Shown: positions 32,275 to 41,536 of the stretch, in pieces
Layout of the letters: the number at the start of each line of letters is the position of its first letter
How positions within the stretch are numbered: the first letter of the stretch is position 1
NCBI GenBank assembly: GCA_964458285.1
Contig: CAYWID010000004.1
Span: 147,842-211,841, forward strand
Direction of reading: 5' to 3'
Length of the DNA: 64,000 nt
Source: an uncultured Subdoligranulum sp.
GTDB lineage: Bacteria; Bacillota; Clostridia; Oscillospirales; Ruminococcaceae
Made by a program: the position numbers and the translations under genes
Notes under the pieces: model-generated
The model's database searches: none
The model's input: the letters and a program-made list of their open reading frames with translations, nothing else
Told to the model about the DNA's origin: nothing

Positions 32275-33060
32275 ATGCTGCAACCCTATGAATTTGCCGA
32301 GGATTTTACCGTTTACGGGTACGACGGGGACTACCGGGGCCTTGCCAGGCCGGGGGCGCTGCTGCGCTACGCGCAGGAGGTGGCCGGGCAGCAGTGTACC
32401 CATTACGGCATCACCGGGGAGGTGTACGCCCGCACCCACACGGCCTATGTGCTGGCCAAAACGGCCATGCGCTTTGTCCGCGTGCCCCGCGTAGGCGAGC
32501 GCCTGACCCTGATCACCCAGCCGGAGGCCCTCAAGCGGGCCGTCAACAAGCGCCTGACCGTGGTGCGGGACGCCGCGGGGGAGGAGATTGCCCTGCTGGA
32601 CAGCCGCTGGGTGCTGATCGATACCGAAAAGCGGGTCATCCTGCGCCGCCACCCGCCCGAGGTCTGCGGCCCCTGGGCCGAGGAGCTGGGCCGCAGCCTG
32701 CCCATGAAGATGGCTTCCCGGCCCGGGGACGCCGCCCCCGTGGGGGAGCGCCGGGCCGTTTACTCCCTCTGCGATGCCAACGGCCACCTCAACAACACCC
32801 GCTATGTGGATCTGGTGCTGGACGCCCTGCCCCCGCAGGCGCTGGACGGCGCGGCGGTGGAAACCCTGCTGATCTTTTACCACAAGGAGGTGCCGCGCGG
32901 GGAAGCGTTTATGCTGTACCGGGCCCAAACGGCCCCCGGCCGCTGGTATTTTTGCGGCGTGCGGGAGGATAAATGCTGCTTTGAGGCCGAGCTTTCCCTC
33001 CGCGCGCTGCCCTGGCGGGACGGCGCCGCGGCGGGCGAAGCGCCGCAGGGCGGCGGCTGA
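32275..33060 (+). CDS. acyl-ACP thioesterase (FatA/FatB-like double hot-dog)
   Basis: LRYAQEVA, CDANGHLNNTRY motif. Confidence 0.88.
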   Translation: MLQPYEFAEDFTVYGYDGDYRGLARPGALLRYAQEVAGQQCTHYGITGEVYARTHTAYVLAKTAMRFVRVPRVGERLTLITQPEALKRAVNKRLTVVRDAAGEEIALLDSRWVLIDTEKRVILRRHPPEVCGPWAEELGRSLPMKMASRPGDAAPVGERRAVYSLCDANGHLNNTRYVDLVLDALPPQALDGAAVETLLIFYHKEVPRGEAFMLYRAQTAPGRWYFCGVREDKCCFEAELSLRALPWRDGAAAGEAPQGGG

Positions 33061-33063
33061 AAC

Positions 33064-33117
33064 GTTACAATTTGTTTACAAAAAGGCCTTGACAACTGAT
33101 GACAAAATTGTTACAAT
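33064..33117 (+). promoter_or_regulatory. sRNA promoter with two 7-4-7 direct-repeat boxes
   Basis: GTTACAA 33064, TTTACAA 33075, TTGACA 33089-33094, ATGACAA 33099, GTTACAA 33110, TACAAT 33112-33117. Confidence 0.82.
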
Positions 33118-33123
33118 AAGCTT

Positions 33124-33210
33124 GCAAGTTCAACCAATTCCTTCTTTTTCATGTGTTTTTTTCTCCTTCTCCTCTGCGCCCCCGCCAATCCCTCCGGCGG
33201 GGGCCTTTTT
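33124..33210 (+). ncRNA. putative anti-SD/anti-AUG small RNA, copy A
   Basis: own promoter; core CUUUUUCAUGUGUUUUUUUCUCCUUCUCCUCU; terminator GCCCCCGCC-AAUCCCUCC-GGCGGGGGC-CUUUUU; no sense ORF with an RBS. Confidence 0.8.
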
Positions 33211-33211
33211 A

Positions 33212-33240
33212 TTGACAGGGCGGCAGGTTTTTGCTATACT
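33212..33240 (+). promoter_or_regulatory. sigma-A promoter of the opp operon
   Basis: TTGACA-17-TATACT with TG extension. Confidence 0.88.
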
Positions 33241-33408
33241 GTATCAAACCACTCTTTACGGCGCGCAATAGAATTTGGAAAAAAGGGGCAAACAAATGAC
33301 TCACAAGGAAGTGGGCGTTGTTTGCTTTTTGTCTTTTTTGGGCGCCGCCCAAAGAGCGGGGGAGCGCCGGGCAGAACGCTGCGCGGCGGAAGAAAGGATG
33401 GAAACGTG

Positions 33409-35397
33409 ATGAAGAAAAGCGGTCAACTTTTGGCCGGCCTGCTGGCTGGCGCTTTTTGCTTTTCCCTGGCGGGCTGCGGCTCCGCCGGCGGCAGCGGCGC
33501 AACCGGGGAGGCGGCCTCCGGCGGCGCCGCGGCCCCCAGCGTCTACCGCACCCTGTATTCCAGCGAGGTAACCACCCTGAATTACCTCACCACCAGCAGC
33601 ACAAACGAGTACGCCATCGGCGCCAACGTCGTGGATTCCCTGGTCGAGTACGACAGCTACGGCAGGATCATCCCCTCCCTGGCCGAGAGCTGGAGCCACA
33701 ACGACGATATGACCGAGTGGACCTTCCACATCCGCAAGGGCGCCAAGTGGGTGGATCAGACCGGCAAGGAGGTGGCCGATGTCACCGCCAACGACTGGGT
33801 CTCCGCGGCGCGCTACGTCAACGACGCCCACAACGATTCCGCCAACCAGTATATGTACAACACGGGCGCGGTCGTCCACAACGCGCAGGCCTACTATGAC
33901 TACACGGCCTACCAGCTCACGCTGGAAACGAACAACCTTGCCACCGGCGAGAACGCGGCGGATTCGGACGGCAACCCCATCACGGTCGTGGACCCCGTGG
34001 ATCCCGCCAGCATCGGCGTGCGGGCCGCCGACGATTCCACGCTGGTCTACACGCTGGATCAGCCCTGCCCGTTCTTTCTCACAGTGCTGTCCTACACCTC
34101 CTATATGCCGGTGTACGGCCCGTTTTTGGAGGAGAAGGGCAGCCAGTTCGGCCTGGACAACGAGAGCCTGCTCTACAACGGCGCCTACATCCTCTCGACG
34201 TTTGAGCCGCAGGACAGTCATATCCTGACCAAAAACCCCGCCTACTGGGACAAGGACAACGTCTTTATCGATAAAATCCAGGAAAAGTACAACCCCGAGG
34301 CCACCAGCGTGGAGGCCACCATGTACAAGAACGGCGAGGTCGATCTGGCCCACATCAGCGCCGATCTGCTGGATTCCTGGCTGAAGGACGACGCCACCAA
34401 AAACCTTGTCCACGGTTCCCGGCCGGACAATGCGTTCAGCTATTTCTACTGCTTCAACTTTGACCCCGAGTTCGACGCCCAGTACGAGCCGGAAAACTGG
34501 AAAAAGGCCGTCAACAACGAGGATTTCCGCCTTTCGATCCTTCACGCGCTCGACCGCGTCAAGGCCAAGACGGTCAGCGAGCCGTACGACCCCAAGAGCC
34601 TGCTCTGCAACACGGTCACCCCGGCCAACTTTGCCGTGGGCGCCGGGGTGGATTACACCCAGTACCCGGCGCTGCAGGCGTTTACAAACGGCGACAGCTT
34701 TGACGCCGCCGCGGCCGCGGCCAGCCGGGACAAGGCCCGCACGGCGCTTGCCGCCGAGGGCGTTACCTTCCCCGTCAAGGTGCTGATGCCCTACAACCCC
34801 ACCTCCCCCAACTGGGACAAGGAATGCCAGGTGGTGGAGCAGCAGCTTGAGGGCGCCCTCGGCGCCGATTACATCGATGTCATCGTGCAGGCCGGCCCCG
34901 AGACGGGCTTCCTGTCCTCGGTGCGGCGCAGCGGCAACTACGCGCTGCTCAAGTGCAACTACGGCGCCGATTACGCCGACCCCATGACCTACACCGATCC
35001 CTTCACCAAGGGCAGCAACTACAATTTCTGGGATACCAGCACCGACCCCGCCACTGCGGCCCTGTTTGCCGAATGGGAGGCCAAGGTCAAGGCGGCCTCC
35101 GCCATCTATAACGACGACGGCGCCCGCTACAAGGCTTTTGCCGAGGCCGAGGCCATCCTGATCGACCACGCCATCGTAATCCCCTACAGCATTTCCTCGG
35201 GCGAGGGGTACGTCGCCAGCAACCTCAACCAGCTGGAGGGCGAGTACGCCCCCTACGGCGTGGCGCGGGAGCGGTACAAGTACGAGCATCTTTACCCCAC
35301 CTCGATGAGCATGGAAGAATTCCGGAAGGCCTACGACGCCTGGGTGGCCGAGCGCACCCGGGCGGTGGCCGCCGCCACAACGGAATCCGCGTCCTGA
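33409..35397 (+). CDS. oppA: oligopeptide ABC substrate-binding lipoprotein
   Basis: LAGC lipobox; TTLNY, DSLVEYD, WTFHIRKGAKW (SBP family 5). Confidence 0.93.
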   Translation: MKKSGQLLAGLLAGAFCFSLAGCGSAGGSGATGEAASGGAAAPSVYRTLYSSEVTTLNYLTTSSTNEYAIGANVVDSLVEYDSYGRIIPSLAESWSHNDDMTEWTFHIRKGAKWVDQTGKEVADVTANDWVSAARYVNDAHNDSANQYMYNTGAVVHNAQAYYDYTAYQLTLETNNLATGENAADSDGNPITVVDPVDPASIGVRAADDSTLVYTLDQPCPFFLTVLSYTSYMPVYGPFLEEKGSQFGLDNESLLYNGAYILSTFEPQDSHILTKNPAYWDKDNVFIDKIQEKYNPEATSVEATMYKNGEVDLAHISADLLDSWLKDDATKNLVHGSRPDNAFSYFYCFNFDPEFDAQYEPENWKKAVNNEDFRLSILHALDRVKAKTVSEPYDPKSLLCNTVTPANFAVGAGVDYTQYPALQAFTNGDSFDAAAAAASRDKARTALAAEGVTFPVKVLMPYNPTSPNWDKECQVVEQQLEGALGADYIDVIVQAGPETGFLSSVRRSGNYALLKCNYGADYADPMTYTDPFTKGSNYNFWDTSTDPATAALFAEWEAKVKAASAIYNDDGARYKAFAEAEAILIDHAIVIPYSISSGEGYVASNLNQLEGEYAPYGVARERYKYEHLYPTSMSMEEFRKAYDAWVAERTRAVAAATTESAS

Positions 35398-35547
35398 CGG
35401 CGCTTTTTTCAAAAATCCAACGCAGACAAAGTCCGCATTCCCCCGCAAAAAACAGGGGGGATGCGGCTTTGTCCGGCCTTCGGTACGGCGCGCACCGGGG
35501 GCGGGGCAAGGCCGCATCCGGGCAGACAGGAAAGGGGAAATCCTTCC

Positions 35548-36498
35548 GTGGCAAGCTACATTCTCAAGCGGGTGCTGCACGCTCTGGTCACGCTGGCCGT
35601 CGTCATCGTGATCGTGTTCGTGCTGCTCCGGCAGATGCCCATCGAGGGGTACTTCAACAATTTCGATAAATACACCCCCGCGCAGATCACGGTGGGCCTG
35701 CAAAAGCTGGGCCTGACCGATCCCGTCCCCGTGCAGGTGGCGCACTATTTCCGGCAGCTTGCGCACGGCGACCTGGGCACCTCCAACAAGTACCGGGAGG
35801 GGTATCCCATCGCCAGGATCATCGCCAAAAAGGCCCCCGTCTCGATCGAGCTGGGGCTGATCAGCCTGGCCGTCTCGCTGGCGCTGGGGCTGGGGCTGGG
35901 CATCCTGATGGCCCGCTCCACCCGCACCCGCTGGAAGCTGTGGGATACCTTCGGCACCGTGTTCATCGTCATTGTGCAGGCGGTGCCCTCGGCGGTCTAC
36001 CATCTGCTGATCCAGCTCTACGGCAGCGAGCTGCTGGGCGTGCCCATGCTGTTCGACGCCGCCCGGCCCGCCACCTGGGTGCTGCCCGTTTTTTCGCTTT
36101 CCATCGGCAACATCGCCTATTATGCCATGTGGCTGCGGCGGTACATGGTGGACGAAAGCAACAAGGATTACATCCGTCTGGCCCGCGCCAAGGGGGTGCC
36201 CGCCGGGCGGATCAGCCGCGTCCATGTGTTTCGCAACGCAATCGTGCCGCTGGTGCAATACCTGCCCAACTCGATCCTGTTCACGCTGATGGGCTCGCTG
36301 TATGTGGAATCGCTCTACTCGATCCCCGGCATGGGCGGGCTGCTGGTGCAGGTCATCAAATTGCAGGACAACACGATGGTGCAGGCGCTGGTGCTGGTGT
36401 ACGCGGCGGTGTCGGTGCTGGGGCTGCTGTTCGGCGATCTGATGATGGCGCTGGTCGATCCGCGCATCAGCTTTACCAGAAAAGAGGGGGCGCGCTGA
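35548..36498 (+). CDS. oppB: oligopeptide ABC permease
   Basis: GTG start; GDLGTS, DYIRLARAKG, SIPGMGGL. Confidence 0.93.
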   Translation: MASYILKRVLHALVTLAVVIVIVFVLLRQMPIEGYFNNFDKYTPAQITVGLQKLGLTDPVPVQVAHYFRQLAHGDLGTSNKYREGYPIARIIAKKAPVSIELGLISLAVSLALGLGLGILMARSTRTRWKLWDTFGTVFIVIVQAVPSAVYHLLIQLYGSELLGVPMLFDAARPATWVLPVFSLSIGNIAYYAMWLRRYMVDESNKDYIRLARAKGVPAGRISRVHVFRNAIVPLVQYLPNSILFTLMGSLYVESLYSIPGMGGLLVQVIKLQDNTMVQALVLVYAAVSVLGLLFGDLMMALVDPRISFTRKEGAR

Positions 36499-37520
36499 TG
36501 ACATACCGCGGCATGAGATCCCGCCGGCTGGAAGCCGCGCTGGAAACCGAACTGAAAAACCAGACCGGCCAGGCCGGCGCCGCTCCGTCGGAGGCCGGGC
36601 TGTTCGCCCCCGCGGATTTCGACCACACCCAGGCCGAGCGCGGCGGCTACTCCAACTACTCCTACTGGGGCGCCACGGTGCGCACCTTCTTCAAAAACAG
36701 GGCGGCGGTGTTTTTTCTCTGCCTGATCGCGGCCGTTTTGCTGTTTACCTACATCCAGCCGCTGCTGCCCAACCAGAAAAGCCCCAAAACCATCTACAAC
36801 GATCCCACGACCGGGGTGCAGATCATCAACCAGGCCCCCAGCGCGGAATTTTGGTTCGGCACCAACTCAATCGGGCAGGACCTTTGGGCGCGCACCTGGG
36901 CCGGCACCCGCACCTCGCTGGGCATCGGCTTTGCGGTGGCCTGCTTTGAGGCGCTGTTCGGCACCACGGTCGGCGTGCTGTGGGGGTATGTGCGCAAGCT
37001 GGATCTTGCTTTTACCGAGCTGTACAACATCTTCGACAATGTACCCCAGACGCTGGTGCTGATTTTGATCTCCTACATTCTGCGCCCCGGCGTGGGCACC
37101 ATCGTGTTCGCTCTTTGCCTGACCGGCTGGCTGGACATGGCGCGGTTCATCCGCAACCAGGTCGTCATCATCCGGGACCGGGATTACAACCTGGCTTCCC
37201 GCTGTCTTGGCACCACCACCCCCCGCATCGTGCTGAAAAACCTGCTGCCCTACCTGGTGTCGGTCATCACGCTGCGGATGGCGCTGGCCATCCCCTCGGC
37301 CATCGGCAACGAGGTGTTCGTCACCTACATCGGCATCGGCCTGCCCACGGACACCCCCTCGCTGGGCAATCTGGTGCAGGCCGGGCGGCTGCTGATGAGC
37401 CAGCCCAACCTTCGCTACCAGCTTTTGTTCCCCACGGCGGTGCTGGCCGTCATCACGATCTCACTCTATGTGGTCGGCAATGCGTTTGCGGACGCCGCCG
37501 ACCCCAAAAACCATGTGTAA
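36498..37520 (+). CDS. oppC: oligopeptide ABC permease
   Basis: WFGTNSIGQDLWARTW, TGATG overlap with oppB. Confidence 0.93.
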   Translation: MTYRGMRSRRLEAALETELKNQTGQAGAAPSEAGLFAPADFDHTQAERGGYSNYSYWGATVRTFFKNRAAVFFLCLIAAVLLFTYIQPLLPNQKSPKTIYNDPTTGVQIINQAPSAEFWFGTNSIGQDLWARTWAGTRTSLGIGFAVACFEALFGTTVGVLWGYVRKLDLAFTELYNIFDNVPQTLVLILISYILRPGVGTIVFALCLTGWLDMARFIRNQVVIIRDRDYNLASRCLGTTTPRIVLKNLLPYLVSVITLRMALAIPSAIGNEVFVTYIGIGLPTDTPSLGNLVQAGRLLMSQPNLRYQLLFPTAVLAVITISLYVVGNAFADAADPKNHV

Positions 37521-37533
37521 GGGGGCGGCAGTC

Positions 37534-38649
37534 ATGGCGTTGGAACAAGCGCAAGATCCCGGGCAGGCCCGGCCGGACCGGGCGGGGCCTGCCGCCCCGC
37601 TCATCGCCATCCGGGATCTCGATTTCCGCTTTACCCTGCGCGGGCAGACCCTCCATGCGCTGCGCGGCGTTTCGCTGGACGTTTACCCCGGCGAAAGCCT
37701 GGCCATCGTGGGGGAATCCGGCTCGGGCAAAAGCGTGCTGGTCAAAACCCTGATGGGCCTCAACGATGCCAACGGCTATGTGGCCGGGGGCAGCATCCGC
37801 TTCGGCGGCCGGGAGCTGACCGCCCTGCATACCGACGAGGAATGGCGCGCCATCCGCGGCCGGGAGATCGCCATGGTGCTGCAGGACCCCATGACCAGCC
37901 TGAACCCCCTCAAAAGCATCGGCTGGCAGATCCGGGAGGCCGTGGAGCTGCACCGCAACCTGCACGGCGAGGCCGCGCGGTCGGCCGCGTGCGCCCTGCT
38001 GGAGGAGGTAGGCATCAGCGACCCCGCCCGCCGCTACGGCCAGTACCCGCATGAGTTTTCCGGCGGTATGCGCCAGCGGGTGGTCATCGCCATCGCGGTG
38101 GCCTGCCGCCCCCGCGTGCTGATCTGCGACGAGCCGACCACGGCGCTGGACGTTACGATCCAGGCGCAGATCGTAAGCCTGCTCAAGCAGATGCAAAAAA
38201 AATACAACCTTACTACGATCTATATCACCCACGACCTGGGCGTGGTGGCCAATGTGGCCGACCGCGTTGCGGTCATGTACGCGGGCGATATCGTGGAGGT
38301 GGGCCGCTGCGCGGAGGTGTTTTACGACCCGCGCCACCCCTACACCTGGGCGCTGCTGTCCAGCTTGCCCCAGCTTGGCGTCAAGGGGGAACCGCTGTAT
38401 GCCATTGAGGGCACGCCCCCCAACCTGTTCCGGCAGGTGGCGGGGGACGCCTTTGCGCCCCGCAACCCGCAGGCGCTCAAAATCGATTTTGTCAGGCGCC
38501 CGCCGATGTTTGCCGTTACGCCCACCCACGCCGCGCGCACCTGGCTGCTGGACCCGCGCGCGCCCAGGGTGGAGCCGCCCGCCCACATCCGCGCGCTGCG
38601 CGAGAAGGGCCGCGCGGCCGCCTGCGGCAGGGAGGTGCCCCATGTCTGA
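37534..38649 (+). CDS. oppD: oligopeptide ABC ATPase
   Basis: [36 protein letters not shown]. Confidence 0.95.
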
Positions 38650-39589
38650 ATCGCAAGAACGCCTGCCTCTGCTGGAGGTTGACCATATCCGGGTGCAGTT
38701 TGGCAAACCGCGCCGCCCCTTTGTGGCGGTGGGGGATGTCTCGTTCTCGGTCTATCCGGGGGAGACGTTCGGCCTGGTGGGGGAGTCCGGCTCGGGCAAA
38801 ACCACAATCGGCCGGGCCGTCATCCGGGCCAACCCGCTGGCCGCGGGCGAGATCCGCTTTGCGGGCCGGCGCATCTCCGGCAAGCTGACCCCCGCGCAGG
38901 ACCAGCAGGTGACCCGCGATATCCAGATGATCTTTCAGGACCCGATGGATTCCCTCAACGAGCGGGCCAAGGTGGGCTACATCGTGGCCGAGGGGCTGTA
39001 CGCGCCGGGCCGCCGCACCACCGAGGCCGAGCGCCGCGCGCTGGTGGACAAGGCTTTGCTGGATGTGGGGCTGCTGCCGGAGTTTTCCAGCCGGTTCCCG
39101 CACGAATTTTCGGGCGGGCAGCGCCAGCGCATCGGCATTGCGCGGGCGCTGATCCTCAACCCCCGGCTCATCGTGGCCGACGAGCCGATCTCTGCGCTGG
39201 ATGTATCGATCCGGGCGCAGGTGTTGAACCTGCTTGCCCGCCTGCAAAAGGAGCGCGGGCTGACCTACCTGTTCATCGCGCACGATCTCTCGGTGGTGCG
39301 CTTTATCTGCGACCGCATCGCCGTCATCCGCCGCGGCGCCCTTGTGGAATTGGCTGAAAGCGAACTCCTGTTCGCCCATCCGCTCCACCCCTACACGCGG
39401 GCGCTGCTCTCGGCCATCCCGCAGCCGGACCCCATCGCCGAGCGGAACAAAAAACTGCTGGTCTACGACCCGTCCTGCCACCATTACGAGAGCGAACCGC
39501 CCCGCTGGGCGGAGCTGGAGCCGGGCCATTTTGTGCTGGGCAACGCCCCCGAACTGGCGGCCTACCGCGCGCAGCTGGCAAAGGGCTGA
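38642..39589 (+). CDS. oppF: oligopeptide ABC ATPase
   Basis: GESGSGKT, FPHEFSGGQRQR, HPYTRAL. Confidence 0.95.
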   Translation: MSESQERLPLLEVDHIRVQFGKPRRPFVAVGDVSFSVYPGETFGLVGESGSGKTTIGRAVIRANPLAAGEIRFAGRRISGKLTPAQDQQVTRDIQMIFQDPMDSLNERAKVGYIVAEGLYAPGRRTTEAERRALVDKALLDVGLLPEFSSRFPHEFSGGQRQRIGIARALILNPRLIVADEPISALDVSIRAQVLNLLARLQKERGLTYLFIAHDLSVVRFICDRIAVIRRGALVELAESELLFAHPLHPYTRALLSAIPQPDPIAERNKKLLVYDPSCHHYESEPPRWAELEPGHFVLGNAPELAAYRAQLAKG

Positions 39590-39628
39590 ACAGGCGGGGC
39601 CAGCCCTTGCAGAAAGGAACAAAACGCA

Positions 39629-40480
39629 TTGCAGAATGAACTTTACAGGGAGATCGATGCGCAGATTGCCGCGTTTCCCGCAAAAACGGCGGTGCTGTCC
39701 GCCTGGCTGCCTGCGCCCGGCGCCCCCGCCGTGCCGGGGCTGCCGGTGGCGGGCTGCCTGTACGGCTGCCGGGCGGAGGAATCCGTCGTATCGGCCTCCA
39801 CCGTCAAGGTGGCGGTGCTGCTGACGGCGCTTTCCCTCTGCGCGCAGGGCGCGCTCCGCCCGGAGGAGCAGGTTTCGCTGCCGGAGGCCGCCATCCTGCC
39901 CGACACCCAGGTGTTTGAGGCGGAAAACCGCCGCCCCGCCTACCCCCTGTGGGAGCTGCTCTACTGGATGACCGTGGAAAGCGACAACACGGCCACCAAC
40001 CGCCTGCTGGACCTGCTGGGCATGGACGCCGTCAACGAATTCTGCCGCCGCTGGGGCCTGGCGAGCACGGTCGTGCGGCGCAAAATGCTCGATTGGGACG
40101 CCGTCGCGGCGGGCAAAAACAATTTTACCAGCCTGGCCGATCAGTACCGGCTGTACGCGCTGCTCAACGCAAAAAGCTTCCTGCCGCCCGCGCTGCGCGC
40201 CCTCGGCTGGCGGATGCTGGCGGAGCAGCGGTTTGCGGACGGCATCCTGCGCTACCTGCCCCGCCACCCGGTTTTTGCGCACAAATCCGGCTGCCTTGAC
40301 TTTCTGGAACACGATGCCGGGGTGTTTTTGGGGCGCCGCCTGCTGTTTGCGGGGGTGTTCACCTGGGACGGCCCCTCGCCGGAGGGCGACCACCGCCAGC
40401 TGCGGCACATCGGCAAGATCGGGCGGAACCTATACCTGGCCGCCCGGGACGAGCTTGGCCAAGAGGAGGCGCTGCCATGA
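39629..40480 (+). CDS. class A beta-lactamase-fold serine hydrolase, no signal peptide
   Basis: SxxK (STVK), SDN and KSG motifs; TTG start after GAAAGGA. Confidence 0.85.
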   Translation: MQNELYREIDAQIAAFPAKTAVLSAWLPAPGAPAVPGLPVAGCLYGCRAEESVVSASTVKVAVLLTALSLCAQGALRPEEQVSLPEAAILPDTQVFEAENRRPAYPLWELLYWMTVESDNTATNRLLDLLGMDAVNEFCRRWGLASTVVRRKMLDWDAVAAGKNNFTSLADQYRLYALLNAKSFLPPALRALGWRMLAEQRFADGILRYLPRHPVFAHKSGCLDFLEHDAGVFLGRRLLFAGVFTWDGPSPEGDHRQLRHIGKIGRNLYLAARDELGQEEALP

Positions 40481-41316
40481 CCGCAATCGCCAACAAGGCC
40501 GTCTGCCCGCTCTGCGCGGCGCCCGCCGCAACGGCCGGCACGCCCGCGCTCTCCGGCCTGGAGGACGAGGTGCTGCTTGGCATGCCGGTGGAGATCACCG
40601 GCCCGGCGCAGGCGGGATGGGTGCCGGTACTCACCGAGTACCGCTACACCGGCTGGATGAAAACCGGCGATCTTGTCGCCGACCCCGCGCGGGTCGCGCG
40701 CTGGCAGCAGGCGGAGCGGCGGGTGATTCTGCACAAAAACGCCGTCGATGTGCTGGCCCTGCCCAAGGTACAGGGGGCCTTTGTGGCGCAGGCGCTCCCG
40801 CTGGGGGGCCGCCTGGCCCTGAACGGCCCCGCCGCCGGGGGCTGGCAGCCGGTCGCTCTGCCGGACGGCCGGGCGGGTTTTGTCTGCGCCAGCGCGCTCG
40901 ATGCCCTGTGGGAGGCGCCCTGCTGCGCCGCGCCCGCCGCGCTGCGCCGCGCGCTGACCGATGCCGCCCGCCGCTATGCCGGCACCCAGTACCGCTGGGG
41001 CGGCAAAACGCCCGCGGGCATTGATTGCTCGGGCCTGTGCAGCATGGCGTATCTTTTGTGCGGCATCCGCATCTACCGGGACGCCGCCATCAAACCGGGC
41101 TTTCCGATCCATGCAATTCCGCCCGCCGCCATGCAGGAGGGCGATCTGCTCTATTTTCCCGGCCATATCGCCCTGTACCTGGGCGGCGGGCTGTACATCC
41201 ATTCCACGGGCCGGGCGGGGGACGACGGCGTGACCGTCAACAGCATGGACGCGGACGCCCCCCTCTACCGGGCCGACCTTCCCGCCAGGCTTCTGGCCGT
41301 GGGGTCGTATTTCTGA
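40477..41316 (+). CDS. SH3-like + NlpC/P60 peptidase (YkfC/DPP-VI-like), no signal peptide
   Basis: YRWGG, IDCSG (Cys), GHIALY (His), IHST (His); N-terminal SH3-like repeats. Confidence 0.88.
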   Translation: MTAIANKAVCPLCAAPAATAGTPALSGLEDEVLLGMPVEITGPAQAGWVPVLTEYRYTGWMKTGDLVADPARVARWQQAERRVILHKNAVDVLALPKVQGAFVAQALPLGGRLALNGPAAGGWQPVALPDGRAGFVCASALDALWEAPCCAAPAALRRALTDAARRYAGTQYRWGGKTPAGIDCSGLCSMAYLLCGIRIYRDAAIKPGFPIHAIPPAAMQEGDLLYFPGHIALYLGGGLYIHSTGRAGDDGVTVNSMDADAPLYRADLPARLLAVGSYF

Positions 41317-41429
41317 CCGCGTGCCTCCGCGCGCGTTTTTGGGCAAGGAGTATGACTAAAACCGCGCTGACACAGCATATTGCCTAAGATTCCTGCCCAT
41401 GGGCAACAAAAGATTGTCTGTGCGGAATT

Positions 41430-41458
41430 TTGTATTTTGTGCGCGGATATGGTACAAT
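41430..41458 (+). promoter_or_regulatory. sigma-A promoter of the IMP dehydrogenase gene
   Basis: TTGTAT-17-TACAAT with TG extension. Confidence 0.7.
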
Positions 41459-41536
41459 GCTATCCAAGTAGAAACGGTTCAACCGGCGGCACAGCCGGTT
41501 TTTCGCAGCGGTTACGCAGTAAAAGGAGAGTCATAC

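Follow-up and report, generated by a model that had tools for sequence, protein, structure and literature searches.

A class-A-fold serine hydrolase beside a YkfC-like peptidase in an opp operon of a Gemmiger-type gut bacterium: a candidate cytoplasmic DD-peptidase for imported stem peptides

The 64,000-nt stretch of DNA analysed here (the window, to whose full length all positions refer) derives from a Gemmiger-type gut bacterium and carries, on its + strand, a block in which the peptide-transporter genes oppABCDF are followed by two hydrolase genes, one for a protein with the class A beta-lactamase fold and one for a peptidase with SH3 and NlpC/P60 domains. The locus raises the question as to what an enzyme of the penicillin-recognising fold would do behind a peptide importer. 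Peptidoglycan-peptide recycling and scavenging are understood chiefly from Escherichia coli and Bacillus, and we know of no cytoplasmic enzyme in either that acts on DD bonds, either D-Ala-D-Ala or the D-Ala-mDAP (meso-diaminopimelate) cross-link. The absence of Glu166 from the lactamase-like protein, its kinship with penicillin-binding protein A (PBP-A) and its strict pairing with a YkfC-like peptidase together make a cytoplasmic DD-carboxy/endopeptidase the best reading of this enzyme. It is proposed, with moderate confidence, that the operon serves the uptake and breakdown of free peptidoglycan stem peptides and that the lactamase-fold protein acts within it as such a peptidase. Gene content, order, conservation and catalytic residues were established directly; all substrates and activities are ones that we infer.

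The lactamase-like protein and the adjoining peptidase

As judged from its signals and gene models, the region 33212-41344 is one promoter-to-terminator operon of oppABCDF, the lactamase-like gene and the NlpC/P60 gene, with the following features (aa, amino acids):

33212-33240, + strand: probable opp promoter, sigma-70-like TTGACA-17-TATACT with TG, 11/12 matches
33409-35397, + strand: oppA, 662-aa substrate-binding lipoprotein of the Ami/Ali type (SBP_bac_5, E 2e-51; LAGC lipobox; lipoprotein signal MKKSGQLLAGLLAGAFCFSLAGC)
35548-36498, + strand: oppB, permease (BPD_transp_1 and BPD_transp_1_N), with a GTG start after the ribosome site AGGAAAGGGG
36498-37520, + strand: oppC, permease (BPD_transp_1 and OppC_N)
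37534-38649, + strand: oppD, ATPase (ABC_tran and oligo_HPY)
38642-39589, + strand: oppF, ATPase (ABC_tran and oligo_HPY), overlapping oppD by 8 bases
39590-39628, + strand: spacer of exactly 39 bp containing a GAAAGGA ribosome site; ldcA occupies this slot in most relatives
39629-40480, + strand: lactamase-like gene, 283 aa, TTG start (PF13354 Beta-lactamase2, E 9e-43), Glu166-less and PBP-A-like; probable DD-peptidase
40477-41316, + strand: YkfC/dipeptidyl-peptidase-VI-like gene, 279 aa, two SH3b domains and NlpC/P60 (PF00877, E 1e-19); predicted gamma-D-Glu-diamino-acid endopeptidase
41318-41344, + strand: intrinsic terminator closing the operon, a GC-rich hairpin and T5 right after the last stop, ahead of guaB

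Gene models, Pfam assignments and motifs agree with the preliminary description of this locus as oppABCDF, a 39-bp gap and a class-A-fold hydrolase with STVK, SDN and KSG motifs, whose gene overlaps an SH3-NlpC/P60 gene; the overlap is a 4-bp ATGA. No terminator-like site was found on the + strand between oppF and the two enzyme genes.

The serine-enzyme motifs of the lactamase-like protein are S57-T-V-K60, S118-D-N120 and K219-S-G221. In an alignment of the family drawn from the loci L011-L090 (surveyed below), Ser57, Lys60, Ser118-Asp-Asn, Lys219 and Gly221 are invariant in 78/78 members, as is Met153, which in every one of them takes the position of Glu166 in class A enzymes. The retention of the catalytic residues and the lack of Glu166 argue for an intact serine acyl-enzyme catalyst without the deacylation base of the lactamases. 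Across the 78 members, the third motif reads K-T-G in 40, K-P-G in 33, K-S-G in two and K-G-G in two.

The AlphaFold2 model of the protein (predicted local distance difference test score 93.3) retrieved class A folds with Foldseek, including 4HES, PER-1, PBP-A and BlaB, at template modelling (TM) scores of about 0.8. The best match is 4HES, a 'beta-lactamase class A-like protein' from Veillonella parvula (E 4e-16 with a single sequence and 9e-38 with a profile; TM 0.86), while the closest characterised relative is PBP-A (profile E 4e-32; TM 0.81 to 2J7V). In the profile alignment, Met153 lies opposite Leu158 of PBP-A, the residue that was mutated to Glu in 2J9O (L158E) to mimic Glu166.

The second enzyme aligns over residues 25-259 with dipeptidyl-peptidase VI of Bacteroides (3PVQ, 3NPF), and its further structural matches are 2HBW, 2EVR and Bacillus cereus YkfC (3H41). 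In the alignment with 3PVQ, its Cys184, His230 and His242 fall on the CSG, H and H positions, and none of the three varies among 76 relatives, so that the Cys-His-His triad is in place. The SH3_16 model scored 24.0 bits, slightly under its cut-off of 25.8. In YkfC, the N-terminal SH3b domains close the S2 site, which confers specificity for a free N-terminal L-Ala.

That neither enzyme bears a signal peptide, as the preliminary description had stated, is borne out by both N-termini. In the lactamase-like protein, residues 2-15 make up helix 1 of the modelled fold, and the N-terminus is conserved from residue 1; likewise, the motif MxAIxNxxVCPL (MKAIV..CPL) of the NlpC/P60 protein is conserved from residue 1 and constitutes the first SH3 strand. 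Both enzymes are therefore probably cytoplasmic.

These observations bear on the names that automatic annotation in a protein atlas gave the first enzyme, 'serine hydrolase' and 'beta-lactamase class A domain'. The protein might be a true beta-lactamase, or a BlaB-like sensor of beta-lactams or muropeptides, that lies beside opp by chance or for regulation and has no catalytic role. The class A fold with all three serine-enzyme motifs would fit such a protein, as would the cytoplasmic regulatory protein BlaB (2WUQ) among the structural matches. However, the invariant Met in place of Glu166, the missing export signal and a score of only 57 bits against the NCBIfam bla_class_A model, whose cut-off is 200, all speak against it, so that of the marks of a functional class A lactamase the three motifs are present and the remainder are absent. 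Moreover, the position of the gene between ldcA and ykfC is invariant, and no conserved regulator was recognised among the scanned flanking genes, where one recurrent open reading frame (ORF) upstream of the epimerase gene has no family match. A lactamase or sensor is thus highly improbable, and a true beta-lactamase was rejected for the lack of Glu166 and of an export signal. Such genes should accordingly not be annotated as beta-lactamases or resistance genes. Of the traits of PBP-A-type enzymes, the protein has the class A fold with a non-acidic residue 166; it lacks the extracytoplasmic location.

Related loci and the reduced form in the window

A pattern scan across 185,579 species genomes found 171 relatives of the lactamase-like protein, of which the best 80 loci (L011-L090) were surveyed, many of them in metagenome-assembled genomes (MAGs). 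Neighbours were counted by tblastn with the window proteins, and each denominator comprises the loci informative for that side (for example, those with enough 3' DNA). The loci lie mostly in Oscillospiraceae (Intestinimonas, Pseudoflavonifractor, Flavonifractor, Faecousia, Angelakisella, Vermiculatibacterium, Pullichristensenella), with one in Caproiciproducens and one in a Gemmiger MAG.

In 72/72 informative loci, a YkfC-like gene directly follows the lactamase-like gene on its 3' side; because it is repeated in all of these related loci, the adjacency is far beyond chance. Upstream, oppF was found in 59/66. The neighbourhood survey that the preliminary description had called for thus supports the linkage. 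Immediately upstream of the lactamase-like gene, 61/75 loci carry a gene of about 305 aa between it and oppF, and this gene encoded a Peptidase_S66 LD-carboxypeptidase (LdcA) in all seven cases scanned, the best NCBIfam name being muramoyltetrapeptide carboxypeptidase. Clustering of flanking ORFs further revealed, immediately before oppA in 36 loci, an MR_MLE-family enzyme (best NCBIfam name L-Ala-D/L-Glu epimerase) and, some 22 bp behind ykfC in 38 loci, a DppA D-aminopeptidase of family M55. The full unit, epimerase-oppABCDF-ldcA-bla-ykfC-dppA, is by these family assignments the complete enzyme set of Bacillus dpp-ykf with one conserved addition. The presence of LdcA, epimerase, YkfC-like and DppA genes around the same opp upholds the earlier analogy with Bacillus dpp-ykfABC(D) as a unit for peptidoglycan-peptide import and breakdown. 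Loci L084, L052 and L043 have no opp, and in them ldcA-bla-ykfC or bla-ykfC stands alone.

Several loci carry additional genes. In 18 loci (L040:465-1484, L017:146-1159 and 16 others), the epimerase gene is preceded on its own strand by a conserved ORF of about 340 aa that has no match in Pfam or NCBIfam and may be a further component of the full cluster. Downstream of dppA, an M42 aminopeptidase (nine loci) and an FMN-dependent dehydrogenase (seven loci) occur in some cases, and an Amidohydro_3 enzyme adjoins the unit in others (L046:3822-4856, L064:7804-8838, L043:4356-5954 and L063:11710-13068 are examples of such added genes).

The lactamase-like family is small and known mainly from metagenome assemblies, its few named members being Clostridia. 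Among 400 genomes sampled across the class there was no match at E 1e-30, and an initial set of 36 same-genus genomes yielded only paralogues of 27-28% identity; the family is therefore rare among the sampled genomes. A distant PF13354-like paralogue is also present elsewhere in the genome of the window (G000:C3:164048-164563, locus L002) and in the genus (L006-L009), with 24-28% identity and ORFs of roughly 290-380 aa. In the papers searchable here, a set outside which most subscription journals fall, neither a role for the family nor its placement in a stem-peptide cluster is described.

The survey also decides a point on which the preliminary description went astray, namely that the penicillin-recognising fold stands in the place of the carboxypeptidase. 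Since ldcA and the lactamase-like gene lie side by side in 61/75 loci, they are not alternatives, and replacement of LdcA by the lactamase-like protein was rejected on this co-occurrence. It could nonetheless be argued for the window that the lactamase-fold enzyme is the unit's LD-carboxypeptidase, which in lieu of LdcA would convert tetrapeptide to tripeptide for YkfC: its gene fills the slot after oppF that ldcA holds in relatives, and no Peptidase_S66 was detected in this 99%-complete genome. Yet besides the coexistence of the two genes, the absence of ldcA is scattered on the tree with at least four forced changes, an S66 gene was found elsewhere in the genome in three of the five ldcA-less relatives searched, and penicillin-recognising enzymes act on D-Ala-D-X bonds. 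PBP-A, moreover, showed no LD-carboxypeptidase activity (PMC11189452), and the ability of a YkfC-type enzyme to cut tetrapeptide (PMC9928106) means that an LD-carboxypeptidase step is not strictly needed. An LD-carboxypeptidase is, on this evidence, improbable.

The window locus is rather a reduced form of the full cluster, without ldcA, epimerase and dppA. Its genome (2.35 Mb, 99% complete) yielded no S66 gene, whether queried with the family model or with the protein of a relative, no M55 match and no MR_MLE match above the family cut-off, the only MR_MLE_C match lying below it. Of the features of a dpp-ykf-type cluster, the window therefore retains the importer linked to YkfC, and S66, epimerase and DppA are wanting. 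In a quick maximum-likelihood tree (IQ-TREE), the window and the other Gemmiger locus (L011) form a supported pair beside ldcA-positive loci, and ldcA is missing from the cluster in these two and in several scattered lineages; the changes that the tree forces argue for repeated loss of ldcA from the cluster.

Within the genus, orthologous opp genes were found in 14/62 other genomes, with OppA 58-76% identical (mostly about 71%). The Gemmiger MAG that is the source of L011 has the order thioesterase-opp-bla, as in the window, and six examined genomes have opp-ykfC without the lactamase-like gene (L097-L101 and L104, that is, G003, G026, G473, G004, G478 and G474). The gene guaB precedes oppA in G473 and G478 but follows ykfC in the window; either the unit or guaB has therefore been rearranged.

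The genes flanking the block are unrelated to it, and comprise liv and pot ABC (ATP-binding cassette) systems, an acyl-ACP (acyl carrier protein) thioesterase, guaB and a polysaccharide deacetylase; the GC (guanine plus cytosine) content is 60-71% across the operon stretch. The alternative oppB start, an ATG at 35461, is probably too far upstream. The oppA-oppB spacer (35398-35547, 150 bp) harbours a stable hairpin at 35458-35520, and a weak terminator-like site is found at 35389-35403; a hairpin or weak terminator behind a binding-protein gene is the usual layout for its excess expression. An Rfam scan of 32900-41500 found no riboswitch or leader, and the sole match was a chance hit of a miRNA (microRNA) model to this hairpin. 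Just upstream of the opp promoter, a second promoter-like site (33089-33117) and a terminator-like hairpin with a T-run (33189-33203) delimit a short putative transcript (region 33064-33210). It carries CCTTCTTTTTCAT and TTTCTCCTTCTCC, antisense to a ribosome site followed by Met-Lys-Lys; OppA itself begins Met-Lys-Lys.

Substrates of the predicted pathway

In the proposed pathway, the Ami/Ali-type Opp transporter would bring in stem peptides. The lactamase-fold protein would then act as a cytoplasmic DD-peptidase of the penicillin-binding type through Ser57, Lys60, Ser118 and Lys219, removing the terminal D-Ala of pentapeptides and/or opening the D-Ala-(D)mDAP cross-links of imported dimers. 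Finally, the YkfC-like cysteine peptidase (Cys184, His230, His242) would cleave the bond between gamma-D-Glu and the diamino acid where the N-terminal L-Ala is free. In most relatives, LdcA (tetra- to tripeptide), L-Ala-D/L-Glu epimerase and the DppA D-aminopeptidase would complete the pathway. In the genome of the window, in which genes for these three were not detected, the products would be L-Ala-D-Glu and mDAP or mDAP-D-Ala, to be passed to general peptidases.

The case for a DD-peptidase is strengthened by considering which bonds the other enzymes would cover. In the full cluster, mDAP-D-Ala would fall to LdcA, gamma-D-Glu-mDAP to YkfC, L-Ala-D-Glu to the epimerase and then a dipeptidase, and N-terminal D-Ala to DppA. 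This would leave only the DD bonds uncovered, D-Ala-D-Ala of the pentapeptides and the D-Ala-(D)mDAP cross-link, on which enzymes of the penicillin-recognising fold classically act. The earlier suggestion that D-Ala is trimmed from imported stem peptides is plausible, and would fit best as a DD-carboxypeptidase activity (penta- to tetrapeptide) rather than an LD-carboxypeptidase one. The chlamydial YkfC acts on Opp-imported peptides, cuts tri- and tetrapeptides and requires a free L-Ala (PMC9928106); since it accepts the tetrapeptide, the pathway of the window could run without LdcA, with the YkfC-type enzyme cutting the tetrapeptide directly.

The 72/72 pairing would also suit an enzyme that acts on a product of YkfC, such as mDAP-D-Ala(-D-Ala), and the lactamase-fold protein might instead be another D-stereospecific hydrolase of the pathway, such as a dipeptidase for D-Ala-D-Ala or mDAP-D-Ala, a D-amidase or D-aminopeptidase, or an enzyme that deamidates amidated isoglutamine (iGln) or mDAP residues. 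Proteins of the beta-lactamase fold include D-aminopeptidases, amidases and glutaminases, and the specificity of PBP-A depends on iGln amidation. However, 38 loci already have a D-aminopeptidase of the M55 family, and those D-aminopeptidases and amidases that are known from the superfamily are class-C-like or belong to families other than PF13354. This alternative is considered rather unlikely.

The transporter itself invites a further explanation. Among solved structures, the best matches of OppA are pneumococcal AliB, AmiA, AliD and AliC (E 2e-56 to 2e-48), with DppE and MppA ranking after these. The operon might accordingly serve general oligopeptide nutrition, its enzymes handling occasional D-amino-acid peptides of any origin rather than wall recycling in particular. 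In keeping with this, OppA is closest to the general peptide binders of the Ami/Ali type, the genome contains only two family-5 binding proteins, and peptidoglycan fragments that other gut bacteria release would serve as food and not be recycled material. Against it stands the enzyme set of the relatives (LdcA, YkfC, L-Ala-D/L-Glu epimerase and DppA), which is specific to stem peptides; the explanation departs from the favoured one chiefly in where the peptides come from rather than in the chemistry, and its probability is judged to be low. The kinship of OppA to long-peptide binders is compatible with uptake of larger fragments and does not imply specificity.

Several points weigh against uptake and breakdown of stem peptides with a DD-peptidase in the cytoplasm. 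To our knowledge, PBP-A and all well-studied DD-peptidases are extracytoplasmic, and a cytoplasmic DD-carboxypeptidase would need to spare UDP-MurNAc-pentapeptide (MurNAc, N-acetylmuramic acid). Identity to PBP-A is only about 20%. In 33/78 family members the third motif is K-P-G instead of K-T/S-G, proline being unusual there for penicillin-recognising enzymes. The protein evolves fast, with 60% identity between the two Gemmiger copies versus 83% for OppF, and the six genomes with opp-ykfC alone show that its gene is dispensable in the genus. OppA resembles general long-peptide binders and not MppA or DppE, so that the transporter may be a general peptide importer. Finally, as the survey covers the best 80 of 171 matches, more distant members might differ.

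If the DD-peptidase reading is correct, the enzyme would close the single chemical gap left by LdcA, YkfC, epimerase and DppA, and it would constitute an intracellular beta-lactam target in abundant gut anaerobes. Such bacteria may also clear NOD1/NOD2-active wall fragments from the gut lumen. It is possible, if doubtful, that the lactamase-fold protein represents the first physiological cytoplasmic enzyme of the penicillin-binding type, a DD-endopeptidase/carboxypeptidase with which gut Oscillospiraceae fully digest imported cross-linked or pentapeptide fragments. Natural variants for comparison are at hand in loci with the full set, loci that are without ldcA and loci that are without the lactamase-like gene.

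Comparison with known systems

What is new here is a conserved, putatively cytoplasmic PBP-like component in a known recycling or catabolic module, of which the window shows a stripped-down form. The class-A-fold hydrolase between LdcA and YkfC in the surveyed Oscillospiraceae loci is a concrete candidate for the missing DD step.

The B. subtilis dppABCDE-ykfABCD locus encodes the D-aminopeptidase DppA, the Dpp transporter, the LD-carboxypeptidase YkfA, the epimerase YkfB and the endopeptidase YkfC. As in that locus, a family-5 peptide ABC importer is joined here to stem-peptide hydrolases that lack signal peptides, and the relatives carry a homologue of every enzyme. Unlike it, they place an additional, obligate serine hydrolase of the class A fold between ldcA and ykfC and follow the order epimerase-opp-ldcA-bla-ykfC-dppA. 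The binding protein here is Ami/Ali-like, and the window is without ldcA, epimerase and dppA. The MppA/Opp-LdcA-MpaA-YcjG system of E. coli similarly combines import, an LD-carboxypeptidase, gamma-D-Glu-mDAP cleavage and a dipeptide epimerase. Its MpaA, however, is a zinc carboxypeptidase and not an NlpC/P60 enzyme, its genes are scattered, and it includes no cytoplasmic penicillin-recognising enzyme.

A minimal two-part system for amidase-released stem peptides is found in Chlamydia trachomatis, in which OppABCDF carries out the import and a cytoplasmic YkfC the gamma-D-Glu-mDAP cut (PMC9928106). The six same-genus genomes with exactly opp-ykfC resemble this arrangement, to which the window adds the lactamase-fold enzyme.

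For that enzyme, two comparisons are instructive. The V. parvula protein 4HES has the same R-x-M-x-D segment in the Glu166 region, and its length suggests that it, too, is without a signal peptide; it is about 22% identical to the window protein, and is a structural-genomics entry whose PDB title names no function. PBP-A of Thermosynechococcus elongatus is a DD-carboxypeptidase and DD-endopeptidase that cleaved a sugar-free synthetic pentapeptide (PMC11189452). With PBP-A (2J7V), the window protein shares the class A fold, the three motifs and a hydrophobic residue in place of Glu166. PBP-A, however, works on the wall after export; the protein described here has no signal peptide and is encoded within what is predicted to be a cytoplasmic catabolic cluster.

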